From Psammoneis japonica (Eukaryota): a DNA stretch of 64,000 nucleotides. The notes beneath the pieces were generated by a model. The model worked only from the letters and a program-made list of their open reading frames with translations. It did no database searches and had not been told where the DNA came from. Below, piece by piece: positions 7,281-59,920 of the stretch; position 1 is the first letter of the stretch; every line of letters starts with the position of its first letter. The DNA lies in contig QPGO01000040.1 of assembly GCA_008632985.1 (NCBI GenBank), forward strand, positions 377,719-441,718. The letters run 5' to 3'. Both the position numbers and the translations under genes were made by a program.

Positions 7281-7399
7281 TAATAATCATGAAGCGCCCA
7301 AGAGGTGCCTGCAACAGACAATGGTCAGTGTGCAGCCTGCATTGGATGGACGGGTTACTTTCACAAGCATGTGGCAGGAGTCAGTCCTCTATCGACCAC

Positions 7400-10150
7400 A
7401 TCGAAGGTTGCACCGCAGCCATTGGACTGCTGAAACCGGCAGGTCGTGAAACCAAACGCGACGTGTGTGTGTGAGTTTCCCGCCGTGTGCTTCCAAATGT
7501 GGAGCAGAACAATGACGTTCGTCTCGTTTTTGAGCTTCAAACAATCCCCAAAGCCGCAGCACCCAATGGGTTTGTGCATCTTCGACCCTGGCTTATGTCA
7601 GTTTTAGCAGCTAAGAAACAAGGGCTTCGTCGAAACAGGGGATTTGCCCTCTGCCTGCTGAAAGGCAGCAAGGGCGCCAATTGTCGTTTTCCAACAAATG
7701 GTCTTGTTTGCATCGACGACATCAAGCCGCCACCTCCATCCATCACTGGTGCCATTTTCTTTCAAATTGAGATGCTCTAGAACACCGGAACAGTGCGCCA
7801 AGAGGCTGAGCAGCGCCTCACCGGCACCACCACAAGCTCCCATTTGTCCGAGATTGACCCGTCTCAGATGAGTCGGCCTTGTCGAGTCACAAACCACACG
7901 CACAAGGTTGATGTGCTTTAGAGTCTTGTGACAGTGCCTCAAGAGGTCAACCACAGCCTCGCATGACTCGGCTTCAGAAATGCCGTTCTGGCCCACATCA
8001 AGCCGCTCCAACTTTGGCACTGTTGTTTCCAAGATTGCACATGCAAGAACCTTGCATCCTTTGTTGCCAATGTTGCAACCCGCGAGATCAAGTCTCATCA
8101 ATCCACCAACAATGGAGCTGAGCTCCTGGCAGCCCACGCTGTTGATGCGTTTGTTGTGCGAGAGGTCAAGAACTCGTGTTTTCGTGTGTGAAGCCTCACA
8201 AGCATTGAGCCTGAAGCATCACGTTCATCGGCATTTGTGGTGCTGAATCCTTGAGCAACAGCTTTGCACCCGGCGGGCCCAATGTTGTTGTGGGACAATT
8301 TCAGCATTTCCAATTTTGGCAAGCATCCTCGCATTGTGACATCCGCAACCTGACATGCTGTCATTCCAGTTGACCATTGTCGCCTTGAGCTCCGTCACAG
8401 AACCAAAATGGCGCTCAAAGTGTTCTTGATGCAGTCACACCACCAATGGACGATCGTCTTTTTGACATGTGAACTTGCAGTTCCCGATGGCATGCTCAAA
8501 CAACTCAGGTGACAAGGGGGATGTCATTGTTGAAGAGAGCGGCAGGCTTGGGTCAACCTCTCTGTGACGAAGATCAAAAATCTCTTCAAGTCCGGTGTGC
8601 TTCATCGCAGCCCAACAGGTTTCGGCAAAGCACCGCCCTCGATTGTCGTGCTGCACCGGGGTGCCGTCGGTGGGGAGACTGCAAGCATCGGGACAAGACG
8701 GCAGAAACTCTTGGACCGGATGGACTTTTGCACGTGGGTGTGAAAAGAAGGCACCCAAAAAGTTTGATCCCTTGCAGCATGCATGCAGACAAAAGGTCAT
8801 TTTTGTCACGCCCTTTGTGACATTTAAAGGCTGCAACACGTCGCCGTGATGCATTGACTCTCATCAGTGGCTGTGTGTTGCACTCCTCGGTTTTGGCGGA
8901 ACAGTGTGGGCACATGCGAAGGAACATGCAGAACTGCACAGAGTTTTGCGCGTTCGACAGTGATCAACGTTGCTGCAGACAACTCCCACTCAGGGTTTCG
9001 AACCCCTGGCCTCCTGCCCAATGGTTGCGAGATGAACCACTCCGCTGTGAATTCACAATGCAGTGTGCATGCAGACAAAAGGTTGTTTTTGTCATGCCCT
9101 TTGTGACATTTAAAGGGTGTGACACGTCGCCGTGATGCATTGACTCTCATTGGTGGCTGCATGTTGCACCCTGCTGGAAGAGTCCTTCTTCTTCGGGTGA
9201 ACGAAAGCATCCAATCTCTGGGTCTGGGTGCTGGAAGAGTGATGCATGGCCCCAGAAAACACCAAAAAGTGGACTTTCGGTTTGGCTCCTCATTTTGTGC
9301 TTGATGGCTCGAGCTGGCAGTTGCAGCATGGTCCCTTTTGGATCGGGGTGGTTTGGTTGCAGCCACACGCAGCTCAAGACAATGATGTTAAAATGCAAAG
9401 GAGTGCACGCGGCATCCACCACATCCTCCAAGCTGAGAAAAGCTTCCGGCAGAAGCTCTTGGCAAGGCCTCATCACTGGCATCTTCTCTGTGTCATTGAC
9501 AGCGCACTTGATGAGCCAAAGAGAATCAAGCAGTGCAGTGGCACCCGAACAGAGAGGTTCTTCCAATGAATCTCCAGAACCAGCAGTCCACAGCTCCTTT
9601 GATCGAGTTTCGTCTTCAAGAGCGCGACTGGCCAATCGGAGCTCAAACGCCTTTTGGCACATCAACCAAGCCTTTCGATCACACCCATCCACCTCTCCCC
9701 CTTTTCCTTTCTCGCAGCAAGTTGCTGCCCACAAAACACAGAGCCAATCGTTTTGGTCGGCTCCCAGTTTCCAATGCTGAATGGCGCGTTCCTTGTCCCG
9801 CTGGTTTTCGTAGAACGTGGCGAGCCAGCGGATTGCGTTTAGATTCCCTCTTTGTGCTGCTTGGCAGTGCAAGGATTCCGCCCGTCAATGGCCCCCTTTT
9901 CCTGCGTGCATTTTTGCCAGTTCCACGAGGCTCTGTGCTTCCTTGTCGTCAGTCTCCATCCTCCGAGTTGTGAAGCTCTGTTGTCATGTCGAACGCACCA
10001 TTGCAAACTCCATTGTCCATCAGCATGACAGCCGACAAATGCGCGACATTGCGACTCGTCGTGCGAGTGAAAATTGCTTTGTGTTGCGCGAGTGAACAGG
10101 GCACATTGATCATGACAAGAGAACATGCGAACCGATGAAGACACCAAGAT
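7400..10150 (-). pseudogene. Decayed Sel1-repeat / HET-like / RNI-type LRR gene
   Basis: Sel1-like AAQRGNLNAIRWLATFYE..AIQHWKLGA; IVLSCVWLQPNHPDP...GVFWGHASLFQ (family pattern LSYxW..HPDP..FWDYxSLxQ); LRRs LKLSHNNIGPAGCKAVA, LDLAGCNIGNKGCKVLA, LDVGQNGIS; multiple frameshifts. Confidence 0.65.
8778..9170. repeat. ~105-bp diverged direct duplication (8780-8883 / 9067-9168)
   Basis: gcatgcagacaaaaggt..ccctttgtgacatttaaagg..cacgtcgccgtgatgcattgactctcat..gttgcac present twice. Confidence 0.9.
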
Positions 10151-10246
10151 GCCATTGCTGGATGACACGCTAAAGGGGAGAGATGACATGGATGCCCATG
10201 GACACTTCACCCTGCACTTCTTGCCAATGGTGGTGGGAAAGACAAT

Positions 10247-10700
10247 GTGGAAGCATGGCTCAAATCGAGACATTGCTTGAACAACAGGTTGGCATCTGTG
10301 AGCAATGAGGCGCTCGGCCTGCTGCCAGCATTGGAGAACAATTGGGGCAAGTGGACGTGCACGCACGGCAGAACAAAGGAGGAGTTGGAGGTGCAAAAGA
10401 AGGCAGGCCGCATTCCAGAGGTGAAGTGCAGTGAAGGCAGCAAGAAGCAGGGCGATCAAATGAATCAAGTGCAAAAGGGTCAACAGGGTTTGAACAAGAA
10501 GGGACAGGAGAGATGCAAAAAATTGGGAAGTGCGATTGACCAAAAGAGTTGGGCAAAGACGCAGATGAGTGGGATGAGGTTTGGTTGAAACAGCTCTGGG
10601 AATGCATGGATGGGATGGAAGACAGCTGAGAGAACACAAGAGAGCAGTTGGAAGCAGCAGATGAAGAAGAGGAGAACATTGAGCACATGGATTTGTGGGC
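10247..10700 (+). mobile_element. Relic of a transposon-associated accessory ORF
   Basis: SVSNEALGLLPALENNWGKW resembles an SDEAF.LL..EN...W pattern I associate with diatom TE-linked ORFs; heavily mutated. Confidence 0.3.
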
Positions 10701-10949
10701 AGCAGACCCACCACAACAGGCAGCAGTTTGAACATTTGGCATCGAGTGGCAAATTGAAAACAAGTTGAATCAAGGAAATGGGTGCACCAACAATGAAGAG
10801 CAGGGAACACTGATGCATTGGTGCAGGGTGATCCAAAAATGAGGCTGCAGAGCAGAATTGTCCATGATGGGCACACATTGTTGATGAAGTCAACAAATTA
10901 AAAATTGGGCACGTGGGTGTCGCTTCGCTCGTTGCAATTTGGCAGAGAC

Positions 10950-11880
10950 CCAAATCAAACAAAATCAAAGGCAGCCCAAATTGTTTGATTGCCCCCCGGG
11001 CAAATTGTTCCCCACTCTGATGTGCAGTCGGTGCTGTCATGTGCTGCGCCACTGACATCATGGTGCTGTGACTGGCAGCAACATCATGACACAGCTTGAA
11101 TGGCGCGAACTTCAAAAGCCACAGCTGCAAGTTGTTGTGGCACTGAAAACTGCTGTGCACAGCTTGAGTGCTGACACAAAGCTCAACAGAAGCTGCTGTT
11201 CACGACATTGAAGAAAAATGCTGCACAAATGACCAGGCTAAAAGGGGCAAAGCATTGTCATCACTCTTTTGTGTCTGCAGCTCTGGGTGCACAAATCAAG
11301 CATTTTGTGATGAGCGCAATCTAGCAACTCAGCACAATGAATGCCCTGCCCACCATCAAACACATTGGCAGTTGTTTTGCTGGCATCTGGCTTGCTCCTT
11401 TCTTGGTGCTTTGTTGTTGGTGTGCCGCGAGGCAGAGAGCTTCTCTTGGAAGTGAAAAATGCCTCAAGCTTTGAGCAGTTGCTGTCCAATTTGCTTGTGC
11501 CCTCAGCTCCCACACCAAAACTTGACAATTGCCACATTCCATTGGGTGACACTGCTGGGGTTTTTTGTTGTGTTCACATGAGAAGCGAGAGGACCAATGC
11601 TGGATGTCGCTGCCAGCCAGGTGCATCTTGCCAGCGGCTCTGGAGCATGCAAAAAATCTGCAAGGTTTCTTTGTGCCAGAGGCTTGGCAATCTTGGCAAG
11701 TCCAAAAGACTTGGCAGCTGTTTTTGATTTCTTCTTTGCAGGCTGCGTCGTGCACCGCCAGCTCTTGAAGATCTTGTTCTCGGCTGTGAAATCCTCAGTT
11801 GGATGTGCGAGTTTGCTGCAAGAGAAACCATTGTCTCTTTTTTCGCATCCTTGCCTTGGCCACGTGCTGCACTTCCCCGA
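10950..11880 (-). mobile_element. Possible hAT-like transposase relic (BED-type zinc finger)
   Basis: FWTCQDC...KMHL spacing fits a BED finger; downstream HQSGEQFARGAIKQFGL resembles the hAT H(T/S)GENxA motif; no TIRs found. Confidence 0.3.
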
Positions 11881-12241
11881 TTGGGGCAAATGGCGTGTCA
11901 TTGAAATAAATTGTTCAAGCGGATAGAGATCGTTGGTGTGATGGTTGCGACACCCACCCCTGCACTCGGCGTAGAAATGCGCTCAAGAGAGAATTTGGGG
12001 GACGTGTACCCGCCGCGCCAGCTGCGCTGTTGCGGCTGAAAAAACGCACTGATTGACAGACTCTCTCAGCACCGGTACAAATTCTACACGATGAGATACG
12101 TCCCCGCCCGCCCAAAGAAATCCTTTTTTGGCTTCGGTCTCCGGTAAATAACGCGATCACTTATCACACTGCACACTGCATTCTACTCGGAATCTTTTTG
12201 ACACTCGACACCAACCTTCGACGCGATTCATCGTTGCTTCA

Positions 12242-15234: not shown

Positions 15235-15285
15235 ATGTCGGAGGGTGTTCGGAGTTCGCACAAAGCGAACGGCAAATTTTCAAAA
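15235..15285 (+). repeat. ~50-bp direct repeat, copy 2 (copy 1 at 7232-7280), upstream of the kinase gene
   Basis: Near-identical to 7232-7280, with a short indel and few substitutions. Confidence 0.9.
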
Positions 15286-31244: not shown

Positions 31245-31312
31245 CTCTCTTCCGCACCACTTACAGACCTCCCAGTTTGCTCTCTTCCGCACCACTTACA
31301 GACCTCCCAGTT
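31245..31312. repeat. 33-bp direct repeat, period 35
   Basis: ctctcttccgcaccacttacagacctcccagtt at 31245 and 31280. Confidence 0.95.
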
Positions 31313-31314
31313 GG

Positions 31315-34300: not shown

Positions 34301-36990
34301 AAGTCTCCGGCCAATTGTTTCTCCAAGAAACAAGCCACAGTCAAGACTGCAATGCATGGATCTGAGTTTGTTGCACAGCTGCTTCCACATCATTGCTGCA
34401 TGTTCTGAGTTGCAGTTTCACAGATGACAGATGGGCTGATTGGGTGGGGCCGGTGGGTGCACGGGTTGGTTCTCAGCCCTTTCATCTGCCTGCAGAACTT
34501 GCGTGGCCTTGTGGTGCAACCCAAATCTCTGTAAATTCAGCACATTTTGCCCTGCAGAACAATTTGGGGGAGTGTTTTGGCTTGTGGCTCTCTCAAAATG
34601 ACACGCATGATGACACAGACAACAGCATTTCACCAATTTCAAAAACATGGTCATCTCTGAGGCACTTTGTTGTGCACTCTCAATGGAATGTCACATGTCA
34701 CAGCATGGGATGACAGGTTCATGTGGGCAGCTGATGTGGTGAAAAATCTTGTTGAAGATCTGTGCTGACAATGTCACCACCACTGTCTGTTGATGAGCCT
34801 TGCGTGCCACCACCATTCATGCTGTGTGATTCATTGTGGCTTGTCATGGCTGCTTTGATCCCACTTGCATGTTGTCTTTCTGTTTTGCTCTTTTGTTCTG
34901 CACAAGAGTCTCCATTTTGTTGTGGGGTGTCCCTGAGATGGACTCAATGGGCAAGAGTGTTGCCTCTGCATTGCAATGGCTGTGGCAATCCAACAAAAAG
35001 GCTGAGCCACAGACACAGCATCAGGAAGAGTCAACAACAAATGTGCTGACTTGGAGCTGTGGCATCTGAAGCTGAACAAGCTCTCTCAAGAGCTCCAGTC
35101 AGTCACCACACATTTTTGGCTGGAGCTTGCCCTGCCTCCACAATGCTCTGATGCTGAGTTTCATTTGGCAGACAAATGCATCATGGTGGTTCTGAAGTTG
35201 TGGATTGTCTTTTTTGGCTGCAAGGCAATTTACAACCCAGCAGAAATCTGTGAATTGTTTTGCATCATTTGTTGGCCACTGCTGCAATGTCAGGAATTGT
35301 GGAGTGCTTGATTGACAATCCACTGCACTCCCAGCTTTTGGACTGCAAAAAAGCAACCACACTGACCTTGTTCTGCCATGAAGGAAACTGATGAGTTGTT
35401 CTTGGCTCACCTGTGTTCAAGAACCCAACTGAACGACCTGTTGGACAGCCACACCTGAGTGCAAGCTGCATTTCTTGATTTTCAGTGGATCTTGCATTTT
35501 GCATGCCTTCTGTCATTCAATGCCAGCTGGATTGTCATGCTTTCTGCTTTCCATGGTGTGTGGCAGAAATGCACATGGGAGGCTCTGGATGGTTTCTGCC
35601 CAAAAAGTGCACAGCATCATGTGATCACCAAACCACCAGCAAATTTGAGACCCTGCTGTGATCACTTGATCAATCTTGATCTCCTGCTCCACCACTTCCA
35701 CTCCTGTGGGAGGTGCCTGCTGAGTTTGATGGAGGCAGTGGAAAGATCACATTTGAACAACTGTGGGGCCAATGAATTTCTCTTTGTCTTGGTTGACAAA
35801 CTCAGCTGCCCATTTGGCTTGTGATGCCATCCTCTTTTGGTTTTTGAGTTGGTCAAAGAAAGAAAAATGATGAATCATGTTCTCTCTCACCCAGTGCTGG
35901 CACTCTGCAGATTTTTCTTTTTTGGTGCGCAAATCTGGGAAAGCCAGCATTGCCAAAGAACAAAGTCTGGGTGTGTGACCGGTGCTCCACCTGCTGCCCC
36001 TTGGAGCCAACTTGTGACTTAAAAAACCCGGGTGTGGCTGGTGCAGAGCAGGAGAAAAGGCACACTCAAGCCAGCAGTCTGCAGCCTCTTCGTTTTAACC
36101 CTGTGCAGGCCCCCACAGCTTTGACTGTGATTTTGCTGGAAGAAGCAAGTTCGCAGCACAAACAGCCACAGCTTTGATGACCCCATGATGGCAATCATTG
36201 GCAGAGTTCTTCTCTGGGTGGGGTGTTTTCGTCACAGGCTCAGGGAGTGTCCAATGACAAGCTTTTGTGAGCCTGCATGCCATGGTGGGCAGTGTGCTGG
36301 AAAGACACATGGCAGCAGCTGCGGCCATGTCACAGCAAAAACTGACTGCAGCAACGGCAAGGCACGCTGCTGGCCAGCGCTGGTGGCTTCTATTTTCTCA
36401 AATGCCCCCAGGAAAAAAGAGGCAAACATCTGCTCATGCTGGGCCAGGTGCATCATGCAAAACAAATTTTGGCTGGCTGCGCCAGCAGCCCATTTTCCAA
36501 ATGGTTGTTTTGCCTGCATTGTCTGCACAGCATGGCCAAGAAGACACTGCCCACTTGCAGCAAGTCACCAGCAAGCCTCAATTGCCAGCATTGCTTGTGA
36601 AAAATCTGCACCTGGCAAGTTCTGCAGCTTGGACTTAACCTGGTGCAGCTGTCTTGGAAATGCACCATTGCCCTTTGTTGGCTGGCAGCACACCGGGCTC
36701 CCTCGCATGCGGCAAAGTGTGCGCACCAACTGGTGGTGCAGTGTTGGTGTTGTCATTGCACCATTGGCCAAGATGTGTTCATTGGACTTGCTCAAATGAA
36801 AAAAGAAAATGAGTTGCTCCCTTTTGTCCATTGGCTTTGTGATTGACCGGGCGACCTTTGACCCCATCAAGTCTGCTGGCTTGTTGTGACACACGTTGAG
36901 AGGGCAGGTGATGCTGGCACTGGTGGAGCATGGCCATTGGGGCCAGCTCCTCAAGGATCTTGTGCTGGATCCTCTCCGGGGGCTCCTGTT
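31315..36990. other. TpA- and CpG-depleted hypermutated island 2 (nested TE relics)
   Basis: TA nearly absent, CG scarce, TG/CA dominant; dense spurious Cys/His/Gln-rich ORFs in all frames. Confidence 0.92.
34025..34380 (+). mobile_element. Ty1/copia (CoDi-like) LTR retrotransposon RT-end/RNase H fragment
   Basis: DAAHCMLTGHSVAGIIHFLNKSPANCFSKKQATVKTAMHGSEFVA matches copia RNase H D.AH...TGRSVTG....N.TPI.W.SKKQ.TVETATYGSEFVA. Confidence 0.85.
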
Positions 36991-37340
36991 GTACACTGCT
37001 TTGCAGGAGTCGTCGCAACGTCTGTTGTCACAGATCGGGGCGGGCAGCGGGCAATGGGAAGCGAGGAACTTGGTGCAGTAGTCGCAAAAACGGCAGTTTG
37101 TCTGAAGACCCACTGAACACAGTTGTACATAAGCCTTAGAAATTAACGGGAATGAATTGAAAATGTCACAGATCCAAATTGTTCTTATTGATTGATAGTA
37201 ATGGGCCGTTGGGTCCTGTGCAATTCGCCACCAGAATTTTTTCTCTGCAGGGGTGAACTCACACAATCAGGCAAGTGCCGGTTCAACGGTTGGGCAACGA
37301 CCGAGTGTGAACTGTGATAAGTCACCACCTTCGCCGGCTG

Positions 37341-42691: not shown

Positions 42692-42787
42692 CGAAAAAGG
42701 GAACGCATAATTCATACATAAAATAATACATAAACTATGCTACGGTAGCCAGTTCGATAGTAATCGGGTCAGATTCGTGTGACCCAT

Positions 42788-44377: not shown

Positions 44378-44894
44378 GGTGAGATTTGGCGAAGTATAGC
44401 GGAAAGCAACGCCGAATGCCGCAGATTTTTGATTTCCCTCACGGAGCTCGAGCGCGCGACAAGATCGCGGAGGCTGTTCTGTCTGGAGGCGTCTGTCCTC
44501 TCCCGCCCGAGCGGCGTTGTTGGCAAAAAACGCAAATGTCATACTGGAAATTCAGTGTGTAGGACATTTTCGTCGCCTGCACGTGGTCTCGCGCGGTGCC
44601 GAAACGCGACTGGCCGCACGTCACAACCTGTCTCTTTCTTCCAGCGAGTTCTCGTTGTGGTCCTGTCTGCTAAAGGTAAGGTTACCCCGCACGATGCAGA
44701 CCTAGCTAGCTAGAGAGTCTCTCTCTACTACGAGAGTAGGGCCCTACCTCTTAGAGAGTAGCTACTAGAGTAATCGTAGTTCCCAAGAAACGGCTCTCAA
44801 CTGTCTTCTTTGGTTCATTTCACGCAAAGAGTTTTTTAAACTAGCGTAGTGTAGATATCGCATAACTTAGCTTTTAGTTTATGTTTACCCCCCT

Positions 44895-45980: not shown

Positions 45981-47491
45981 AAATTCATTCTCAAGAAACT
46001 CCGCTTGCCATGGTCTTAATATTCGTCTAGTGGGTACTGCTGATCGCTTGGTCCTATTGCGATATTCTCATCGTCTTCCTCTTGTTGTCGACCACAGGTA
46101 CATACGACATATCGAGGTAAAAAGAGATTCACATCCTGTGGTTTGAGTGCACGGAGTGACTTTTGACAAAAGCATGTTGTCTCCTGCTGTTGCTCCTGTT
46201 CGTGGTTTGCTCTCTCACGACCTGCTTGTCGAGATTTAGACTTGTGCTTTCGTTGTTTCTCTCGTCTTGCTCTGTCATCGTCTTTATGATGCTCCCTATC
46301 GTCTTTCGATGTTCAGTTTTGTGTTTTCGTTCCTTGTCACGTTTTGGTTTTGATGCCGCTGCTTTGTCCTTTGAATCACGTTTGTTGTTTTTGTCCTTTC
46401 TCTGCTCTCCTTTTTTGTTTTTGAACCCTCATGATGCGACGGCTTTTTTCGCCTCTCTTTCTCAGCTATTGGCTTGTCGCTTTCTCGTTCGCCTCCCATT
46501 CGTTCTGGATTGTCATTCATTAGCGCATACATGGTTGCATTGCATACAAAGGATCATGCAGTGCTCCTGCCTCCTGCTGTCAGTCGTTTGTTAGCAACGA
46601 ACTTTTTTTCTGGCACAACGGAAGTCTGGCACACAAAATGTCTCGTGGAAGTAACCAGGGCACTTATGATGGGCAGTAGTCATTTTCATCTTACTGAAAA
46701 AATTAGGCTTTTTTGGACATTCGGAAAAACTATGGGCAATGTTATATGACCTCTTGTAAGATCATTGGTTATTGCCGGGCATAATGTCATTGACAACCAG
46801 CGTAGCGGTACTGTCGACGGTACTGCGTGCAACGTACAGTTGGTAGTGACATCTTTTTCTTGTGGTAATGACTGCGTTGAGTCATTGGTCATCGAGCTCT
46901 TGAAGCATGAAATTAGAGATAGAATGGTGATTGAAAAAGGCCTTCTTGATGAGATAGTAGCGGCATTTCCAATGCGATGCCCGTGTTAAACAAAAGGTGT
47001 GAGCAATGCCGGGATATTCGAATGAAGTCCATCTTTGTCTATTCTAAAGAATTTCTTGCGGACTTGCCAAGTATCTTCGTCGCATTAGTTTCTGTGATGC
47101 TCTGTTGGGAAGAGATCGCCAGCTCAGTACCGCGTCTCTACTAGAGAGAGCTACTAGTAGAGAGGGGCGGGCAAGACGTGACATTGGATGCTGGATGCAT
47201 GGTGCAGACGGGCTGGTTTTCGAAACCAAATATCTCAATCAATCAATCAACACAACGATTACTAGTTAGTGCTAGTGCACCTTAAAGGTTGCAGATTCAA
47301 ATCTAGTTCCATAGCCGTCAACACACATTATCAGAATCTAGCTCCAGGACACAGCTACTAGCTATAGTGAATACAAGCAAAAAGGAATTGGGGACTGCAG
47401 CAATGGGTTATCCATCCTGTCCTCTCTCCTCTAATGGTGTGTAAGTGCATTATACAAGGTTGGATCTTTCGTCGATGGAGGGCAACGCGAT

Positions 47492-48001
47492 CTATACCAG
47501 GCCGATTCCTTTTACCTCTTGCTCCGCCTCAGTTTTGCTCTCTGTCTCGTCATGAGGTAAGTTTCTCAAATAGCTAATGATAGTAAGAAACAACCAAAGA
47601 GTGCTTGCGCCTAAAGCAAACCCCGTCAATAACCCAAAGTATACGAACTCTGGGCTGCCCGAATGGCCGTTGTACCAGCAGTTTCCGTCAAGTGGGTAAA
47701 AGTGCCACGTGTATCTTCCACTGGGTGAATTTTGAACAGACCTGGAGCACAGCGTGGCCAATAGGAGGTACATGCCAAAGAAGCTCACGGCAAATAAACA
47801 CACCACGACTTGATAGAGTGGACGACCCCAGAGCGTCCGTCGGTAGTATGGCTCCTGGCTGTCTTGTGAAGGGACAAACGAATCTGCGTTAGTTGCCGAA
47901 ACGCATCCCGCGCAGCAGCCCATCGGGCAAGATATGCAAGTACAACAACACAATCCCATGGTTCGTTTGAGTGGCTGCGGTTGTTGTTCTCGTTTTGACA
48001 A
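47492..48001 (-). CDS. Small two-TM membrane protein with Cys-rich N-terminus, tandem copy A
   Basis: Paralog of 48400-48963; two hydrophobic segments; C-terminus GIGLV. Confidence 0.65.
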   Translation of the reverse strand: MSKREQQPQPLKRTMGLCCCTCISCPMGCCAGCVSATNADSFVPSQDSQEPYYRRTLWGRPLYQVVVCLFAVSFFGMYLLLATLCSRSVQNSPSGRYTWHFYPLDGNCWYNGHSGSPEFVYFGLLTGFALGASTLWLFLTIISYLRNLPHDETESKTEAEQEVKGIGLV

Positions 48002-48399
48002 CTCTTGTGTATCTTGACACCCGCTTGAGTCGTGAATTGCGCACTATCCTGTTTTGCTTCGCGCACTCTCGACTCCTCTCGAGAAATGCAAGAGTCCAAC
48101 CTTGAAGCACAATGACATTAACAAGGAACGATTTCTTCATAGTAACAGCAGCATCATGTCCCATGCGTGTCGTGTGATTCCGAAATCTCAAATCAAGACT
48201 ACGGATTCAACCTCGAAAAATAGCTGTATACATATTATTAGAATCTAGCCCCAGGACGCAGCTCCTAGCTATAGCGAATACGAGCAAAAAGGGATCTGGG
48301 ATGGACAACCTCCTGCCCTCTAAAGTATCTCTTAATTGATGTGTAAATAATAATGCATTATACAAGGTTGGATCTGTCGTCACTAGAAGGTAACGCGAT

Positions 48400-48963
48400 C
48401 TATACCAGGCCGATTCCTTCTTCCTCTTGGCCCACCTCAGCTTTGCTCTCTGTCTCATCATGAGGTAAGTTTCTCAAATAGCTAACGATGACAAGAAACA
48501 ACCAAAGAGTGCTTGCGCTTAAAGCAGCCACCGTCAATGACCCAAACTCTTCGTGGGAGTTGCCGTCGAGTGGGTAAAAGAACCACGTGTATTTTCCACT
48601 GGGTGAATTTTGAACAGACCTGGAGCACAGCGCGGCCAATGGGAGGTACATACCAAAGAAGCTCACGGCAAATAAGCACAACACGACTTGATAAAGTGGA
48701 CGACCCCACAGCGTCCGTCGTCGGTAGCATGGCTCCTGGAAGTCTTGTGAAGTGACAATTGCATCTGCGTTAGCTGCAAAAGCGCATGCCATGCAGCAGC
48801 CGCAAGATATGCAAGTACAATCATAACAACACAATAGCAATGCCAGCATGGTTCGTTTGTGTGCCTGCGGTTGTTGTTCTCGTTTTGACAACTTCACCTT
48901 ATCTTTGATCTTGACACCCGCTTGAGTCGTGAATTGGGCGCTATCCTGTTTGGCTTCGCGCAC
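48400..48963 (-). CDS. Small two-TM membrane protein with Cys-rich N-terminus, tandem copy B
   Basis: Shares RRTLWGRPLYQVV, LCSRSVQNSPSG, SYLRNLPHDETESK with copy A; flanks also duplicated; true start uncertain. Confidence 0.65.
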   Translation of the reverse strand: MREAKQDSAQFTTQAGVKIKDKVKLSKREQQPQAHKRTMLALLLCCYDCTCISCGCCMACAFAANADAIVTSQDFQEPCYRRRTLWGRPLYQVVLCLFAVSFFGMYLPLAALCSRSVQNSPSGKYTWFFYPLDGNSHEEFGSLTVAALSASTLWLFLVIVSYLRNLPHDETESKAEVGQEEEGIGLV

Positions 48964-49365
48964 TCTCGACTCCCTCTCGACAGGTAGTCGAGGTCATCAT
49001 CCATCAGGTCCATCAGCCGCCCTCAACGTCGATTAAAACCAACCTTCAACGGTCGAGAGTCTAACCTCGAAGCACAGTGGTATTCACAGGAACGATATCC
49101 TCATAGCAACAGCATCATCATGTCCCATGCGTGTTGGGTGTTGGGTGTTGGGCGCGATGATTCGATTCCTTCAGCTGTGTGCGGATTTGAAAGACAGTTT
49201 CATAGTTTTCGCGCTTTATTTTCTGGCGCGCGATGACGTACGTGATGAGTAGTCTAATTGACCAAAATAAAAGATCTGGATGACATGAACTGGAACGCTT
49301 CCTCATCATCTTGCCGGTAAATCACCCCATCGCTCCCGACCGGAGTCTAAGCATAGGCACTGACC

Positions 49366-50391: not shown

Positions 50392-50513
50392 AAGAATGTT
50401 GGAATTCACATCACGCCCCAAAAGGGGGTGCCATCTATATCAGCTACATGCACGCTATATGGTAAGCTACAGTCAAATAGACGCACTAAGAATCCTAAAT
50501 ATGGTTTGGAAAG

Positions 50514-51275: not shown

Positions 51276-51461
51276 CTATCCGTCTGTCTGTCTACATACG
51301 AACTCAAGAACCGAACATTCTTCAATGTCCTGTTAAGTGTCTCAATGACTTATCGCTCCTATGAGAACGTTCTGGTTTCTAAGAAGAATTCTTGTTGTGT
51401 GTCTTAATAGAGTGTTCTTACCGACCCGTACGGGACCCTTTTTTCCGGGTCTCTTTTTGTA

Positions 51462-51501
51462 TGACGTCATCGTGCGAATATAATAGCGCCACCTGACGTC
51501 A
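51462..51501. promoter_or_regulatory. Two TGACGTCA (CRE-like bZIP) palindromes in the transposon left end
   Basis: tgacgtca at 51462-51469 and 51494-51501; the same 8-mer lies upstream of genes at 2478-2485 and 4265-4272. Confidence 0.4.
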
Positions 51502-51785
51502 CCGCACCTGTAAGTCGCCATGAGAACCCGTAGAAAACGCCATGTCTTACAGCTACAGGGGGGAAACATAACCTGCTGTATCTGTAAGCGGAATGATTTC
51601 CGCTCGTACAAATTCTACGTGATTTCCCCGTGCACCGTCGCTTGCGGGTCGAATCAGAACTCCGAAGAAATGATGTGTGAGAAGCAAATCCCGTGACACC
51701 TCTCTCGCGACAAAAAACACACATCAACGCATTCTCACGATGCTCTAGTCATAACAAGTCATAGCATCCATGCAACACATCTGTC

Positions 51786-52844
51786 ATGCCTGGTGGACAG
51801 CCACAGAGTCACAAGTTGTCATGGGCATTGAAAGAGTTGAAAAAGAAGGAGAGATCTGGCGGCTCCGGTGGCGCTGACGGGGAAAAAAATGCGAGCGGTG
51901 CTGGTGGCATTTCTGCGCTCGATGTTGACAGGCCAGCCCCGCATTTGACCATGGATGGAAAAGAATCAACTCTTGTGGAAATGACAAATCTCCCAATCGA
52001 TCTTACGGAGGATGAAAAAGTTGACATCATCAACAAGGAGAAGGGAGTCACGAAAAAGCCGAAGCTTCCAAACTTGCTGGCTCCTGAGAACGAGGCCTTG
52101 TTGCGTGATCTGCTGCAAATCACACAAGCAGCAAAGGCAAATCAGCATGTCAAGCACACATCCAAAAATGCAACCACATCTTCAATCTGGCAGCCAATCA
52201 TGGACGAGTTCTGTGACCCACCTGACGGCCCTGCACGTGGCTGCGCCAAGCCAGATGGTGAGCATGCGGCGCGCACCTTCAAAGAAAAGTGCTGGAGTGT
52301 CATGAAATCATTGGCGAATTTTGCCAAACAGAAGAAGGAAGAGGATTGCTCCCCGTGTGAGGTGTCTGCATTGTTCATGTGGAACGAGCAGCAGGAACCA
52401 GTCAACAAAGACAAAGAGACCAAGTCGGAAGCAATGGCCTTGCAGAAGGAGAGGGCAGCTGCAAATGCTTCATGTGAAGCAAAGCCAAAGCTTGAGCCCC
52501 CACCTCCATTCACAAAGAAGCGCCCAGTCCCAAGTGCAGCTGTCAATCCATCTGAGAGGCCTGATGGAAAAGTGCCGGGGGAGCCGAGGTCAAAGGACCG
52601 TGTGCTGGATTTGGAAAAAACTCAAGACAAGGCAGACGAAGTCTTGAGCGGCATCAAAGCTTTTTTGCCATCCAAGGAAGAGATTGGAGAACTCAACAAG
52701 CGCAAGAAGAGGAAGCTTCAGCTTGATGCAATGGCGTCTGTGGCAACAATGATCACGCAGGGCAGGGATGCGGGTCTCGACGTTTCAAGGTTTGAAAAGC
52801 ATTTCAAGCACCTGCAAGACGAGTTCTTCGAAGACCAAGCTTGA
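51786..52844 (+). CDS. Transposon accessory ORF (putative Myb/SANT-like DNA-binding partner), hypermutated
   Basis: 352-aa open frame inside the TIRs, convergent with the transposase; W-containing helical region and coiled coil; contains no Tyr. Confidence 0.65.
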   Translation: MPGGQPQSHKLSWALKELKKKERSGGSGGADGEKNASGAGGISALDVDRPAPHLTMDGKESTLVEMTNLPIDLTEDEKVDIINKEKGVTKKPKLPNLLAPENEALLRDLLQITQAAKANQHVKHTSKNATTSSIWQPIMDEFCDPPDGPARGCAKPDGEHAARTFKEKCWSVMKSLANFAKQKKEEDCSPCEVSALFMWNEQQEPVNKDKETKSEAMALQKERAAANASCEAKPKLEPPPPFTKKRPVPSAAVNPSERPDGKVPGEPRSKDRVLDLEKTQDKADEVLSGIKAFLPSKEEIGELNKRKKRKLQLDAMASVATMITQGRDAGLDVSRFEKHFKHLQDEFFEDQA

Positions 52845-52954
52845 AAGAGATGAGGCTTTGCTTGGCACAAATTAGGACACATGTTGCATGTCGCCACAAC
52901 AACTTCAGAGCCATTTAGAAAAAAATCTGTGGCCTCTCACAGTGCATGCTAAGC

Positions 52955-54048
52955 ATGACGACCCCGCAAAGTTGCGCGCCAAATTCCCAGTGCGTTAAAA
53001 TGAGCCAGGCGTTGCTCCAGAAGCAATGGGAATTTTGCAACAACAAACAGTGTTAACGTCATCTAAAGAACGAGAGCTTTCTAAATGGTGTCTTTTTCAT
53101 TTCCATGCCCCCATCAGATCCGAATCGGCGTCGAGACATCCAGACGACCCCGCAGTTGCACGCCAAAATCCTGGTGCGTTTTGCTCAAACAGGCGTGGCT
53201 TTAAAAGCACTTGGAATTGTGGGACAATCAATGGCAGCAACATTGTCTACAGAACAAGAGCTTTCTAATGGTGTCTTTTTTATTTCTGTGCCCCTGTCAG
53301 ATCCGAATCAGCGTTGAGATGTCCAGACGACCCCGCAGTTGCGCGCCAAAATCCTGGTGCGTTTTGCTTAAATGGGCGTGGCTTTAGAAGTGCTTAGAAT
53401 TGTGGGACAATCAACGGCAGTAACATTATTTACAGAACGAGAGCTTTCTAATGGTGTCTTTTTTATTTCTATGCCCCCATCAGATCCGAATCGGCATTGA
53501 GATATCCAGACGACCCCGCAGTTGCGCGCCAAAATCCTGGTGCGTTTTGCTGAAATAGGCGTGGCTTTAAAAGTACTTAGAATTATGGGACAATCAATGG
53601 CAGCAACATTATCTACAGAACAAGAGCTTTCTAATGGTGTCTTTTTTATTTCCACACCCCTGTCAGATCCGAATCAGCGTTGAGATGTCCAGACGACCCC
53701 GCAGTTGCGCGCCAAAATCCTGGCACGTTTTGCTTAAATGGGCGTGGCTTTAAAAGCACTTAGAATTGTGGGACAATCAATGGCAGTAACATTATCTACA
53801 GAACGAGAGCTTTCTAATGGTGTCTTTTTTATTTCCACACCCCTGTCAGATCCGAATCAGCGTTGAGATGTCCAGACGACCCCGCAGTTGCTCGCCAAAA
53901 TCCTGGTGCGTTTTGCTGAAATAGGCGTGGCTTTAGAAGTACTTAGAATTATGGGACAATCAATGTCAGCAACATTTTCTACAGAACAAGAGCTTTCTAA
54001 TGGTGTCTTTTTTATTTCCACACCCCAATCAGATCCGAATCGGCGTCG
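52955..54048. repeat. 183-bp tandem array, ~6 units, inside the transposon
   Basis: cagacgaccccgcagttgc at 53141, 53324, 53507, 53690, 53873 (exact 183-bp period) plus a degenerate unit at ~52957. Confidence 0.97.
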
Positions 54049-54141
54049 TTCAGGAAATAGAAGCGCTAAGAGTTTCGCAACAATGCATGACATAAAGATA
54101 AAAGAAGCTACATTCTATGCTGAGTTTGTAATAACACAGAT

Positions 54142-55775
54142 CTAATGTAAATTTAAGTAGTTTTGAATTGATGGTGGATCGACACCAAATGTGCCGATCG
54201 CACCAATCTGGTTGTGGTTGAAGCACGTGTAACAATTTGTGAGCAAGAAAGACACGCGAAGCTGCTCACAAGCATGCGGTGTTTCACAGCACAGCTTGAA
54301 AGGACAAAACGTCCTACAAATTCGAAAGACATTGGATGCAATGCCACAGCTCCACTCTACCGTGATGCGCACTGCCTTGAGCCGATAATTTTCGAGCACC
54401 TGAATGGGCGTGAGTGGAGCTAGCCCGTTGTGGCCGGGGTGATGCGCGTGAATGACGCATTGTTGTTGAGCAAATCCCCGGTCCGTGTGCACAGCATGCA
54501 CCATGCCATTTGGAAAGTAGCCTTGCTGAACATCCAGCAAGTGTTGGTTCACGGCTGACAAGTGCTGCAAATCGGTGTCAGCTCTGGCAAACTCGAATGA
54601 CACAAAGAGCAATGAGAGTGTGATGAGCAGCCACGTTTTACAGGAAATGCAAAGCACATCGGCAGTGCACAACTGTGTGCTTGCCTGCGAGCTGAAGTGG
54701 GACCCCACATGATGCTCAAGCCGTTTGGAAAAGTTGTTGCAAGCATCTTTGTGCCGTGAATGTGCTTGCACCCCGTGTGCACCGATCGCTGAATGTTGTC
54801 TGCGTCAGGGCGACGCGGTGCATCTGCCCAGTCCTCAACTGGCCCTGTCCCTGGAGCATTTGTTTCAAATGTTGAACAATCCACAAAGCCAAAAATGTTG
54901 AATTCCCCTGGTGGACAAACAAGACCGGGGACGTTGCACACTTGAGCAGCATCCGGGTCAGTCCAAGCAGCCTGTTGCTTCAGTTTTTGCTCCATTGCTC
55001 TTGCAAACAAGGGAAAGTCATCAATCCACCTTTCAAGACCTTGTTGCCCAAGCACAGGAGCATGTCTGTCATCAAGATACATCAAAAACCACCGGCATCC
55101 ATACGACCACCGAGTCAAATCCCTGCCTCCAAAGCACTTGTCCACCAACACGGTGTTGTCGAGTCCAAGTGCCACCTCAGTCAAGGAAAACAAAAACAAT
55201 TCCTCACCAGTGAATTGGCAATGATGCCCATGAGCACATGGCACAAGAACCAAATCGGGCAGGTCAAACAAAACATGCAATTGTCGCAACTGATCCACAT
55301 TAAATCGTGTCGTCCGCTCGGCGCAGTTGTCAGAGCATTCATCAATTCGTCGGTTGTGAGGCAAGACAAAATCAGCAGCACGATGCTCTTCCTCGCATGT
55401 CATGTCACCAATTGCTGCATTGCAATCTGCCCAAATGTGAGCCACATGATGACATGCAAAAATGCCACCCAATGTGTGCGCAAGAGCAACGCCAAACGGA
55501 TCGCCCGCATTGCCAACTTGTTCTGGATCCAACAAATGACCATTGTCCTGGTTGAAAACATCAATTCTGGACACAATTGAAAGCAGAGTGAGAATTGCAG
55601 ACCATTGAATGAGTGATTGAACAGAACGCGTCCAGAACACCTCTGTTCTCCTCAGCACTGACACTCCTCGAGCGTTGAGAGACCCATCCCTCATGTTTCT
55701 GTTGGTGAGCCGCCGTGGCAATTTGCGGCGGTGTCCATGGTGAAATGGACGTGGTTGTCTTGGCATGATGTACAT
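54142..55775 (-). pseudogene. Harbinger-type DDE transposase (DDE_Tnp_4-like), hypermutated, frameshifted near 54680
   Basis: IFGFVDCS (D), QRSVHTGCKHIHG..FPNG..WGPTSARR, HTDRGF (D), VRITVEW (E), LLTNCYTCFN. Confidence 0.88.
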
Positions 55776-57949
55776 CAAGAGTGCAACAATGACACGACTG
55801 CAAAAGTGTTTCTTTACCTTGGTGGACGAGAACCCGCAACCCCATCGTCAAAGCATCAAAGCCGCACCCGCACAGGTTGAGCTGATCGGCTGCAGCACCG
55901 GGCAGGCGAATCGTGATTGAGTCGAGTGGTGAAACACGAACGGATCAGAACCCGAGACCCATGACCCGCACGGGTCGGCAAGAACACTCCAATTGCAAGA
56001 CTTCCAGTGCATGCCACACGTGTGTCCTACGAGGACCCTTGATGAGAGCCTTGAGAAGTGGTTCTAAAGCTCTCCTCCAATCTGGCTCATGATTCGTCTG
56101 TGAACCCAATTTGCTGCGAGCACATCTCGTCTGTCAAACTGTCAACTGCTGTGTCAACTGTCACTTGGCGCCACATTGGGCAAAGTGAGCTCGTCGTGAT
56201 CTCCTTTGTTGATCATGGCCAAGGATCCCTCTCGAAGGCACGAATTGCAGTGCCAGTCCTCTGGGGATCGCGGACAAGCCCAATGCTTGCACCGTGCACC
56301 GGCTGATGTTTTCTGAGCAATGAGTTGGAGGCACGGTTGGAAGGTCTGTGCAGGAAATCGATGGGTGGCAAAAGCTTGGCACAGAAATCATGTTGCCATC
56401 CTGATTCGCGAATGCCCTGGTGCAAAAATCGTGTGGGATCCACACGATGCACGAATCGAGCTGAGGCATGATGCACGAATCATCGAGCTTTCGTTTGCTG
56501 ACGCATGAACATTGCTGGTGTGCTGGCACATGGCAGGAAGATGCCGTCATGCAAGAAACGCTGATTCGCAAATGACCTCTCAAATGACCTCTCCACTGAC
56601 AACCACATGACCCAAGAGAATGGAAGTCCTCTTGCCTCTTGTTGCACAGCCGAGCCTCAGGGTGTGGCCTCCAACCACCATGGCTGTTTTGGGGGTCAGA
56701 GAGCTGTGCACAGCCCCGGCGTGCAGCGCAGCTGGCACAGCACCGGCTGTTTTCTTTGGCCAGGGGTTGGGGCTGAGATTGCAAAAAGATGAAAACATCT
56801 TCTCCACAAAAAGGGAGTCTCCAGACCTTGGGCAGACTGGGCCTCAAAAGAGTCTTTTGGACAAGTGCAGCCGCTGGTGGGTGGTGCCCAGAAGCAAAAC
56901 CAGGGGTGCTTTGCGGGAAGAGATTGCCCCCCCTCCCCAGCCCCAGGACTTGCCATGTGGCACCCAGCACAAGCACCAGCTCAGATGTGAGAGTGTGGGC
57001 AGTGTGCCAGCAGCAGCCAGGAGGTTGGAGTTTAAAGGAAACAATTGACAGGGCATGTGCAAGACCATCTCAAGAAGCTGGCGCCAGCTTGTCAATGAGA
57101 GGATGTGCTTGGGGGTGACTCAGCCCAAAGGCACAGCAGCTGAAAAGCACAGGTGCTTTTGTGAGCCATGTTTTTCTCCCAGCAGCAATGTTCCTGCACA
57201 AATGGACTGCTTTGACATTTTGCAGCAAAAGGCCCCACCGCCAAGAAAAAAGGAGATTGCGGTCACTGCGCACTCTCTCAAATCTGCCAAGAAAGATCTG
57301 AGGCCATCTGTGGCATGTGGACAAATGAGGCTTTGTCAGAAAAATTTCATGCACCCGCCTGCAGCAATTTTTCTGTGAATTGGCTTGAGACATGCTCTGC
57401 CTGGAAGAGCTGCCATTTCTGCAGTGCACAAATGTGGTGCTCTGCCTCTCCTCATTTGGAAGCCAAAAGCAGGCAAATTGGGGGGGAGTGGGCCTGCCAG
57501 AGACTGCATGGAAAAGACAGTTGCCAAGGCAAATTTGACTGCTGTGTGATCCTGGAGGCAGAGCTTGTCTGCCACATGATTTGCGGCTCTCATGGCAGGC
57601 AGAGGGCTGTGCTGTGGCTGCCATGGGTGGATTGCAGGTTCATCACATGTGGCTTCTGACCTGGCAGCAGTCCAGACCACTGCTCCAAGCATTCCCCAAC
57701 TTTGCCAAAGCATGTCTGTCATTGGGTGGTCACCCACCTTGTGAGTTCTCAGCTGGGCCTTGTGCTCAGCACCTCCTCAAGAACTTTGGGAGCAGGGAGA
57801 GCAAGTCAGCAGCAAGACAAGATTGGCACTCTGGGCTCATTGTGGCTCAACCATCAGCGACCCTCACTGTTCCCACCTTCACTCAACCTTGCAAAGGACA
57901 CAGCCACTTGTCACTGGAAAACCCACTTGTGCAGACCAGATCTTGATGA

Positions 57950-58360
57950 TCATGGTGATTTTGACCCAGAGGATGCACCAGCACTGTCCCACCACTCTGA
58001 CAGCAGGTGTGCTGGGGTGGTGGACCAAGCTCGCAGCTGAGCTCTTTCCGCAAGCAAGTTGTGTGGCTGGAGAAGAGTGCATCATGGAAAAAACAGTTGA
58101 TGCTCATGTTTGCTCCACATGCTGTTCAAAACTGCAACCTCCTTTGCAGAGCCTGCAGAGAGTGCAAGAGGCACCAAGTCACTTGCAGAGAAGCATGTGT
58201 GCCAAGCCAACACAGCGTGATCCTTCTTTTGTGCAGTTGAGGCTCCTCCAGATGAGGCATCTCCAGGACTCCATCCAAGTGTGACCTGGGTTAAAGGCCA
58301 CCAGCCAGGACAGGATGATGCCACACCTTTGGAAGCTCTGCCTCTCAAAGCTGTGGAAAA
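57950..58360 (+). mobile_element. Non-LTR retrotransposon RNase H relic
   Basis: VTWVKGHQ..QDDATPLEALPLKA resembles the WVKGHQD...L...A motif of LINE RNase H; upstream LSHHSDS resembles (Y)xDS. Confidence 0.5.
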
Positions 58361-59920
58361 GCTCTGCCTCTTAAAGCTTGAGAGTTGGCACCAGATCAGA
58401 TCATCTTGTTGCTCCATTTCATGGCCATTGCCTGTGCACCATGGCACTTGTCTTTCTGTTTCCCTGCCACAAAACCACATTTTGTTTTCCAATGGTGCAG
58501 CTGCAGCAGGCTGTGAGAGAGTGTTGCTTGGCATGCTGGAATGATTTTTCTCTGTGTTTGCGTGCTTGGCATTTTCTGGCACTTTCAGCAGCGTGTTGTG
58601 AGCACTGCAACAAAGTTGATCCATGATCTCCCACCAGGCCCAACAAACAAGACAATGAACCAATGCAATCTGGCTTGCCATCTCTCTTGTTCAAGTGTGC
58701 AAGCACCCCTCTGAAAATTGCAGCCACATTCTTGAATGCCTTTCCAGCAATGAACCTTGGCAGCAGAAGTTCGCACTGGAACCCCCCTGGGGTGCTGCAA
58801 TGAGCAGTTGGAGGTGGGGCTTCTGCTTCATGATTTTCCAATCACTCTCAGCTTTGGCTGATGCAACAAGAGCACAGTGCTGTGCCTGGGTTTGGCCATT
58901 GGGCTTTGATGACATCCCACACACAGTGCCCATGTTCTTGATTGGCCCTGCCACTGCCAGCAGCCAGAGAGCCAAAACACCAGAACCCTCACCCTCGCCA
59001 GCACCAATGGGCTCTTGGTCCTCCTTTTTCAAGATGTGCTTGTGTTGCTTCTTGTTGTCATGGTGAGAACAGAAATTGATGCCCTTGGAGAGCAGCGCCA
59101 ATTGAAGGAGATCCATTGTCGCCTTTTTGACTTTTGTCCTTGGGTGCAAGAACAGCAAACATCCCATGACATTTCTCTGGACAGCAAAAGTTTAGTTGGA
59201 ACACATTTCCCTCATCTGAAAAGAGCAAAAGAAGATCACAACGTGAATGGAGTGAGTGAGAGAGAAATGTCATTGCAAAAGATCATGCCACAAGACAGAC
59301 TTGCCAACGGCTCTCTCGACAAAGGCAACAAGCCATGGTTTTCGTCCAACAAAGATTTCGCCATTTGCTTGTGCTGGTTTGTGGGGAGTGCCTTTTCCTG
59401 TCTTTGCCACCTGAGGTAGAATGGACTTGGCACGAGGTGGTGCAGCAGAGTTGGTGCCAGTCGAACGTCAATGAGAGAATGTGTAGAGATAAAGATGCCG
59501 TACTTGCTAATAAGAGTATAATCTGTGTAATTGCTTTTGCTTGCTCGGAGCTTCTTGGGCTTTGCGCCCGGCTTTCGACAAATGTAAATATTCCTCACAG
59601 TGGTTCGCTTTTCTGAAAGACGCTTCGTCCACATTGTTCGAGTCTTGGTGACTGTGTTCTGGACACGACCGATAGATTGGTTAGCATCGGTTGCCTTCGA
59701 CTCAGGCGAAGCTTTTCTGAGCTTCTACTTCAAGCTGAGGCTTGCTGACAGACAGAGCAAGTTTTCGAGTACAACTATGTCCGTTATCTTATGCATCTTT
59801 TTTTACTTTCCCCTATGTATCACCGTAACTGTCATATGCACCATGTAGTTCTTGCCTTTAATTCCGTTCTCTTCAAAGACCAATAGAGTTTGTTTGCTAT
59901 CGATCGTTCGAGAGAGTGAA

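Follow-up and report, generated by a model that had tools for sequence, protein, structure and literature searches.

A probable footprint of TpA-to-TpG/CpA hypermutation in mobile and other non-genic nuclear DNA of the diatom Psammoneis japonica

Mutation-accumulation lines of the chlorarachniophyte alga Bigelowiella natans show a hypermutation of TpA to TpG or CpA (Mettrop et al., bioRxiv, 10.64898/2026.01.13.699255). According to the sections of that preprint on which we draw, two viral inserts account for 231 of the 302 new nuclear mutations; 230 of the 231 were A to G or T to C, each of them at TpA. Its authors propose an adenine deaminase similar to ADAT2, and they cite DNA activity of some ADAT2 enzymes. 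DDE-endonuclease and reverse-transcriptase domains are over-represented in the set of B. natans genes with low TpA (a frequency of 0.0018). Here, we describe a similar pattern in the diatom Psammoneis japonica. The window, by which we mean the whole stretch of DNA that we analyzed, is 64 kb long (64,000 nucleotides; positions 377,719 to 441,718 of contig QPGO01000040.1, assembly GCA_008632985.1), and it includes five blocks that have lost nearly all of their TpA (TA) dinucleotides. We think it likely (with a probability of roughly 0.85) that a context-specific transition mutator acted in place, at the DNA level, on TpA in mobile or non-genic nuclear DNA of this diatom.

We delimited the blocks from the positions of TA and computed the expected TA in each block by applying the observed/expected ratio (obs/exp) of the flanks, with Poisson P values. 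We also scanned TA, TG/CA, and CpG obs/exp in 1-kb windows across the full 64 kb. The five blocks (I1, I2, I3a, I3b-left, and I3b-right; Table 1) add up to 16.3 kb and hold 39 TA, versus about 570 expected (P from 4e-15 to 1e-74 per block). This corresponds to a TA frequency of 0.0024, versus 0.039 in the flanks, and to an obs/exp of 0.02 to 0.05, versus 0.57 in the remainder of the window. TG and CA are raised symmetrically, to an obs/exp of 1.4 to 1.9 in the blocks versus about 1.17 outside, and CpG is lowered, to 0.17 to 0.58 versus 0.95. In the 1-kb windows, TA obs/exp drops from about 0.5 to 0.8 to 0.01 to 0.09 at 7.5 to 11.9, 31.5 to 37, 51.8 to 52.9, and 54.5 to 59.4 kb, and TG/CA in these low-TA windows reaches 1.49 to 2.05. 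The background outside the blocks is itself already low in TA (the 0.57 just given, with TG/CA at about 1.17).

An earlier sequence-only reading of this DNA had described three nearly TA-free islands. The depletion is indeed far beyond chance, but the third island is really two blocks, parted by 1.5 kb (52873 to 54421) in which TA is near normal (obs/exp of 0.54). Two details of that reading hold exactly: the interval between 7919 and 8825 is free of TA, and the only TA within 51786 to 52844 is at 52004. Some edges of the blocks are graded, with a TA obs/exp of 0.13 at 7391 to 7919 and of 0.32 at 54145 to 54640, and others are sharp (11907, 31297, 36992, and 59417). The edges lie about 100 to 500 bases from host genes. 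The window rule given in the preprint (Rho TpA of at most 0.43, with Rho CpA+TpG of at least 1.52, in at least 3 consecutive windows; 10.64898/2026.01.13.699255) also picks out the islands, for instance at 7501 to 11500, 31501 to 37000, and 54501 to 59500; one or two windows of I1 are at 1.49, just below the cut-off.

The composition of the blocks suggests where the missing TA went. The combined deficit of TA and CpG is 248 in I1, 465 in I2, 62 in I3a, 77 in I3b-left, and 263 in I3b-right, and the excess of TG and CA is 256, 482, 46, 106, and 231, respectively: the two deficits together account for the excess. Deamination of 5-methylcytosine (5mC) feeds the same sink of TG and CA, and the islands show it too, but it cannot remove TA, it supplies only about half of the excess, and it lags behind the erasure of TA in the younger blocks. 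CpG decay is thus a co-occurring process, not an explanation. Repeat-induced point mutation (RIP) of fungi is also a dinucleotide-specific transition hypermutation of repeated or mobile DNA that leaves compositional islands beside normal genes. However, RIP changes CpA to TpA, which enriches TA; it needs duplication and a sexual cycle; and it creates stop codons. In these islands, TA is erased, new stop codons are impossible, and the tandem array next to them shows only light editing. The signature of RIP is absent: TpA is depleted 10- to 30-fold and CpA is enriched. The sequence-only reading had argued that neither RIP nor 5mC decay removes TpA, and we agree that they cannot produce the pattern.

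Duplicated segments show that TA was lost after the duplications, in this genome. First, I1 contains a 111-bp direct repeat whose copies differ at 12 positions: five CA/TG doubles (10 positions), one CG/TG difference, and one transversion. The copies are 89% identical as bases and 99% identical in purine/pyrimidine code. Second, a tandem array lies between I3a and I3b-left. Among its units 1 to 5, 17 of the 25 variable columns are within sites that hold solely TA, TG, CA, or CG. Eight of these sites belong to the TA family and four to the CpG family, and several of the TA-family sites show TA, TG, and CA among the units. Identity within the array rises from 88.5% as bases to 97.4% in purine/pyrimidine code. 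Transitions make up 11 of the 12 differences in the I1 repeat and 19 of 19, 16 of 17, and 7 of 8 differences in three pairs of array units. As a control, a direct repeat in the flank has 134 differences, of which 73 are transitions, with one CA/TG double; its copies are about 800 bp each, are 79.5% identical, and consist of gene-flanking DNA. A CA/TG double between copies that were duplicated in place implies an ancestor with TA in this genome that was resolved twice, independently. Among the 40 listed of 250 differences between the window and other copies, 21 positions are in islands, and 15 of these 21 are exchanges among TA, TG, CA, and CG, including three CA/TG doubles.

The encoded proteins have changed accordingly. 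In 13 frames from the islands (3420 amino acids), Tyr is 0.23%, Cys 5.9%, and His 5.0% of residues, versus 2.5%, 2.2%, and 2.6% in 15 frames from the flanks (7444 amino acids). The block I3b-left encodes most of a transposase pseudogene, which has 3 Tyr in 432 residues, and its relatives have normal Tyr in 149 of the 150 listed (median 4.7%). When the window's copy is aligned with the best 80 relatives, it reads C, C, H, H, and Y at the five columns with a Tyr consensus (codons TGC, TGC, CAT, CAC, and TAT), while other consensus residues are largely retained (G 14/17, L 14/17, F 12/14, R 10/11, and C 4/4). The closest relative is 62% identical over 178 residues; opposite its 8 Tyr, the window has 4 Cys, 2 His, 1 Tyr, and 1 Asp, and opposite its 10 Ile, it has 4 Thr, 2 Leu, 2 Ile, 1 Met, and 1 Ala. 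The sequence-only reading had pointed to conserved Tyr codons that read as Cys or His, and this is borne out at four of the five columns; the two peptides it quoted, RSVHTGCK and TAMHGSEF, are present at 54765 to 54788 on the minus strand and at 34346 to 34369 on the plus strand, respectively.

The DNA of the relatives also has normal TA: in 8 of 8 metagenome loci that encode relatives of the transposase, TA obs/exp is 0.51 to 0.83. One cluster of relatives includes a diatom transcript. The sequence-only reading had allowed that intact copies of these elements might be equally TA-free, and what we found instead is relatives with normal Tyr and normal TA. One further relative of the transposase, about 32% identical to the window's copy and encoded by an ENA contig of 9169 bases (P0184), has 0 Tyr in 224 residues, with Cys or His at 6 of 7 columns with a Tyr consensus. 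The loss of Tyr from P0184 means that the footprint is found in at least one further element or organism in public data.

Overall, four independent lines of evidence (the mass balance, the duplicates, the proteins, and the DNA of relatives) indicate that the loss of TA is mutational and not intrinsic. The separate TpA-to-TpG/CpA mutator that the sequence-only reading proposed fits the CA/TG doubles of the duplicates, the changes from Tyr to Cys or His, the relatives with normal TA, the mass balance, and the support from reads, which is described below.

The blocks also carry traces of how the process works. The strand is chosen site by site: runs tests on the series of TG and CA give z from -1.7 to 0.7, with no single-strand tracts. 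TA is erased even in the blocks where CpG is mildly decayed (I1, I3a, and I3b-left), so the erasure of TA must be faster than CpG decay. The TA that survives is in unusual contexts: 24 of the 39 in the islands are in YTAR, whereas the flanks have 331 of 1860 (P = 3e-9, Fisher test), and 12 of 39 are in TTAA, versus 64 of 1860 (P = 1e-8). Survivors are rich in TAAA, and TA followed by AA predominates. The most over-represented trinucleotide is TGC/GCA (1137 versus 576 expected). From these sequences, A before AA is a poor target; this is the only claim about neighbors that we make, and we treat the excess of TGC/GCA and the contexts of the survivors as qualitative signs. The motif TAAAG accounts for 9 strand occurrences among the 39 island TAs versus 78 among the 1860 flank TAs (P = 4e-5), for instance at 8825, 9111, 10171, 56065, 57033, 58292, and 58372. 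It may mark a context that resists the mutator or a motif that is protected. An estimate of the preference for the 3' neighbor from product counts, which (like the one from survivors) assumes that the ancestral composition equals that of the flanks, was rejected: it gives fractions above 1 and below 0 and is not self-consistent.

A change from TA to TG or CA cannot create a stop codon and abolishes TAA and TAG. As stop triplets, the islands have 18 TAA and 12 TAG versus 379 TGA. The islands have long frames that are open but dead because TAA and TAG were erased and no new stops were possible. Thus, a long open reading frame in such an island, such as the 359-residue Tyr-free frame of I3a, is no evidence of a live gene. 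The CpG decay is what suggests that the blocks are cytosine-methylated, silenced chromatin.

Given these properties, the mutator would convert A:T to G:C at TpA and leave TG or CA according to the strand struck. It would hit sites independently, with no coordination between strands, until near-saturation, and it would halt about 100 to 500 bases from neighboring host genes. Loss of TpA would proceed beside, and faster than, the ordinary decay of CpG to TpG or CpA. Genes would be inactivated by missense changes (Tyr to Cys or His, Ile to Met or Thr), and long frames would be left open. The signature, its local extent, its origin by mutation after duplication, and its backing by reads are what the data show; we infer that the process may be targeted via silent chromatin or small RNA and that, most likely, the enzyme deaminates adenine in nucleic acids and prefers a 5' T (similar to TadA or ADAT2, with A changed to inosine and read as G). 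Such a deaminase would work poorly where AA follows the target A.

The main rival to adenine deamination is chemistry on the thymine side, which we consider unlikely. The T of TpA would be modified in silenced DNA, for instance to 5-hydroxymethyluracil or a J-like base by a dioxygenase of the TET/JBP type, and the modified base or its repair would lead to T-to-C changes. The outcome in the sequence would be the same as that of adenine deamination: our data are strand symmetric, and T to C at TpA cannot be separated from A to G. In dinoflagellates, 5-hydroxymethyluracil is concentrated at TpA and TpC. However, there is no positive evidence for it within the window; 5-hydroxymethyluracil normally still pairs with A, so that an extra error-prone step would be needed; and the mechanistic precedent of B. 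natans favors a deaminase, which is itself a proposal.

Error-prone repair seems far less probable. T:G mismatches from 5mC deamination would recruit non-canonical mismatch repair and a polymerase of the Pol eta type, which would mutate nearby A:T pairs, as in phase 2 of antibody hypermutation; and CpG decay in the islands does imply that T:G mismatches were frequent. Phase 2 of AID-triggered somatic hypermutation involves Pol eta at WA motifs, that is, both TA and AA, and it yields transversions too. It resembles our process in having mutations at A:T, a TA hotspot, and a link to cytosine deamination, but neither mutation at AA nor transversions are seen in the islands. AA and TT are at 79.1 and 74.1 per kb in the islands versus 77.6 and 74.6 in the flanks, with no depletion, and this counts against the Pol-eta-type candidate that the sequence-only reading had listed. 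Also, the duplicates differ almost solely by transitions, and TA is erased in the three blocks with mild CpG decay.

A sequencing or assembly artefact, in which a modified base at TpA is misread and the true sequence is still TA, has little to recommend it. The assembly is not error free: substitutions and 1-bp indels separate the window from the contigs of a sequencing run (X1) at scattered positions, also in the flanks, and the library types are not on record. However, the bases of the islands are carried by contigs of this run at single-copy depth. X1 contains 86% of sampled words from 29500 to 38500, the region of I2. A single X1 contig of 4992 bases crosses from I3b-right into the flank (56152 to 61145) at a constant depth of 59.8, which is the depth of the single-copy flank, with 12 letter differences and 4 gaps relative to the window (we compared X1 contigs over 42000 to 61999). 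A misread modified base would split sites into strand-specific forms at half depth, and none were seen. The frameshifts, the CpG decay, and the divergence between copies in the islands all fit real, old DNA. In the flank at 42000 to 51300, scattered substitutions and 1-bp insertions (for instance behind 46022 and 46303) relative to contigs from X1 and a second run (X2) are at full depth, which suggests another haplotype or strain or residual errors in the assembly.

We also considered editing before integration, in which the RNA or cDNA of a retroelement (as by an ADAR), or incoming DNA, would be edited first and inserted afterwards. The editing of whole elements would fit the sharp outer borders of I2 and I3b-right. 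However, a cut-and-paste DNA transposon is affected, TG equals CA with no strand bias, some edges are graded, and segments that were duplicated locally were each edited on their own once the duplication had taken place, so we judge this account very improbable. Least credible of all is an intrinsic composition or selection, with elements that arrived TA-poor or in which TA was counter-selected (for instance, to evade a TA-cutting nuclease): several unrelated sequences are alike, which a common donor or selective agent could explain, but the transposase has relatives with normal TA and Tyr, replacing a conserved Tyr of the DDE domain with Cys or His harms the element, and copies duplicated in place differ by CA versus TG, which refutes an intrinsic composition for the Harbinger block, the 111-bp repeat, and the tandem array and would leave it tenable in I2 and I3b-right only given intact TA-free relatives.

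Several points weigh against our preferred account, a TpA-directed mutator that acted in place. The enzyme is pure inference, and A to G on one strand cannot be distinguished from T to C on the opposite strand. In this lineage, the process may have died out: the array, with its partial editing, shows only that the process acted after the array had formed. The two estimates of 3' neighbors conflict for T, as survivors give T >= C > G >> A and product counts give C >> G > T > A. A transposon is proven for one block only, and I1 carries a leucine-rich-repeat domain, so that foreign DNA is not established as the target. Repetitiveness alone fails to explain the targeting, because the neighboring tandem array is far less edited. 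Finally, a single sample, possibly the source of the assembly itself, yielded all three sequencing runs, and the type of library is not on record.

Table 1. Coordinates of the TA-depleted blocks and of other features within the window
Feature	Coordinates	Strand	Remarks
I1	7391..11906	no strand	TA 14 vs ~155 expected; CpG obs/exp 0.58
I2	31298..36991	no strand	TA 11 vs ~212 expected; CpG obs/exp 0.17
I3a	51763..52872	no strand	TA 1 vs 37 expected, within 1110 bases
I3b-left	54422..56100	no strand	TA 9 vs ~57 expected
I3b-right	56101..59416	no strand	TA 4 vs ~110 expected; CpG obs/exp 0.07-0.25 (1-kb windows)
111-bp direct repeat in I1, copy 1	8773..8883	+	partner 9059-9169
111-bp direct repeat in I1, copy 2	9059..9169	+	partner 8773-8883
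Tandem array, six 183-bp units	52957..54046	+	inside 1288-bp insert between two convergent genes
Harbinger/PIF-type DDE transposase pseudogene	54145..55847 (54552-55847, then 54145-54804)	-	DDE_Tnp_4 E 4.5e-7
I3a open frame, 359 aa, 0 Tyr	51765..52844	+	convergent with transposase gene
LRR_6-type leucine-rich-repeat frames within I1	7607..8394 (7607-8218, 8101-8394)	-	Pfam LRR_6 E 4.3e-10, 8.3e-4
I2 frame, 145 aa, holds SKKQATVKTAMHGSEFVA	33971..34405	+	motif found
Control direct repeat in flank	47311..48980 (47311-48082, 48220-48980)	+	ordinary substitution spectrum

The sequences of I3a and I3b-left point to a Harbinger/PIF-type element. The transposase pseudogene is in two frames, the first of which is broken by a frameshift at about residue 389. 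phmmer found 594 relatives of the transposase, with alignments ending at residue 388 or 389, and a word-index search with the tail of the transposase for longer proteins gave no match. The 359-residue frame of I3a is probably the second gene of the element; no Pfam family scores above its cut-off in this frame. The element is multi-copy in the genome: relative to about 60 for single-copy sequence, the summed depth of contigs is 350 to 610 across I3b-left and 3 to 4 times single copy across I3a, for a range of 3 to 10 times over the element as a whole. We found no convincing terminal inverted repeats for it. In another copy of the element in the sample, 52851 is joined directly to 54140; therefore, the 1288 bases from 52852 to 54139, which contain the tandem array, are an insert here. 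This insert is only partly TA-edited and so provides an internal clock for the process.

The contents of the other blocks are less clear. When 149 island frames of at least 70 amino acids were compared to Pfam, only LRR_6 and DDE_Tnp_4 passed; DUF4628, SCAB-ABD, Dredd_N, and LRR_1 were rejected as chance-level matches under their own cut-offs. The LRR_6 frames of I1 are not a transposon domain, and looser Pfam thresholds gave nothing further in I1. A 51-bp stretch at the left edge of I1 (7232 to 7280) recurs 8 kb away, at 15235 to 15285, with 90% identity. I2 is the oldest-looking block, with TA erased and CpG strongly decayed. It has no Pfam match and no repeats, even in purine/pyrimidine code, and its 53 plus-strand frames (43 short and 10 longer) yielded nothing credible. 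Its 145-residue frame looks like the part of Ty1/copia polyproteins at their RNase H end. In a language-model comparison, the nearest atlas clusters to this frame are at 0.80 to 0.82, which is under the threshold of 0.9 for a lead; they are annotated as "RxLR effector 161-like" or "reverse transcriptase-like," and one has RVT_2 in 20% of its members. From these sequences, I2 is probably the remnant of a retroelement, and we treat this as a lead only. I3b-right is single copy at a likeness of at least 90% and has no Pfam match, also at looser thresholds. Self-BLAST of the window, both as bases and in purine/pyrimidine code, found no long terminal repeats and no families common to several islands. 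The sequence-only reading had called the islands transposable elements, and this is verified for the Harbinger-type element of the third island only: I1 offers a leucine-rich repeat only, I2 a weak copia lead, and I3b-right no match.

The genes of the flanks are of ordinary eukaryotic kinds and encode a sulfatase, the E1 alpha subunit of pyruvate dehydrogenase, a Cid1-type poly(A) polymerase, FAD oxidoreductases, a methyltransferase, and a RING protein. Among the best 120 matches listed for the E1 alpha frame, all those with names are diatoms (Fistulifera, Skeletonema, Nitzschia, Cylindrotheca, Chaetoceros, and Proboscia), at 75 to 83% identity, in keeping with the diatom host that had been assumed. 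An atlas look-up of the E1 gene gave bacterial clusters only. One host open reading frame is lineage specific, with a single relative at 36% identity. The host is therefore a diatom that lacks any closely related annotated species, and it is distinct from B. natans. No deaminase domain was identified among the scanned open reading frames of the window.

The sequence-only reading had considered the process to be undescribed, but the same signature had been measured in B. natans (10.64898/2026.01.13.699255). We found no description of the erasure of TpA in diatoms in the literature that we searched, which did not cover subscription journals. Going by the sections of the preprint that we used, this is the same kind of process as in the mutation-accumulation lines of B. 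natans, and the diatom example extends it to another major lineage. In both cases, TpA changes to TpG or CpA in discrete regions beside normally mutating genes. There are also differences. B. natans is a rhizarian with a measured rate, whereas our host is a diatom (a stramenopile) and the footprint is read from sequence alone. The targets in B. natans are inserts of giant viruses or virophages, whereas the target verified in the diatom is a Harbinger transposon. The two hypermutating regions of B. natans keep 3.3% and 9.2% TpA, whereas the islands are near-saturated, at 0.24%. The main text of the preprint, as far as it was available, does not mention "context," "trinucleotide," "flanking," or "diatom" (10.64898/2026.01.13.699255). 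Relative to those sections, what the diatom locus adds is the near-saturation, the co-occurring CpG decay, the lack of strand coordination, the survival of TA mainly in TTAA and TAAA, and the property that no stops can arise.

Known adenine deaminases offer partial parallels. ADARs (on double-stranded RNA) and TadA or ADAT2 (on tRNA) change A to inosine, which is read as G, with U or T directly 5' of the edited A. However, these enzymes act on RNA, and on DNA only in special cases, and the avoidance of a 3' AA that we see is unmatched among them. To our knowledge, ADARs are restricted to animals.

It is possible, though we hold this only tentatively, that the mutator is an old genome defence, driven by an enzyme and common to diatoms and chlorarachniophytes. 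A DNA adenine deaminase that prefers T-A (not followed by AA) would be directed in place to methylated or silenced mobile DNA, would remove all TpA there in the course of evolution, and would inactivate invaders by missense without creating stops. If this is true and the defence is conserved across SAR (stramenopile, alveolate, and rhizarian) lineages, eukaryotes would have a third major class of DNA-editing defence, beside RIP and APOBEC, and the system would be a natural source of adenine editors that work in a double-strand context.

The diatom footprint has implications for both the mutator and the annotation of genomes. For annotation, frames that are dead but poor in stops, lack Tyr, and are rich in Cys and His will lead gene finders astray and mask transposons in homology searches. 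For the search for the enzyme, the refractory TTAA and TAAA contexts, the CpG-decayed and presumably methylated chromatin, and the independent hits on both strands provide handles, and the partly edited repeats are a place where ongoing activity could be measured. The mutator was recognized only in 2026, in a single rhizarian alga. Diatoms are a distant and ecologically dominant lineage relative to B. natans, and the footprint in one of them suggests that this kind of mutator is widespread and not a curiosity.

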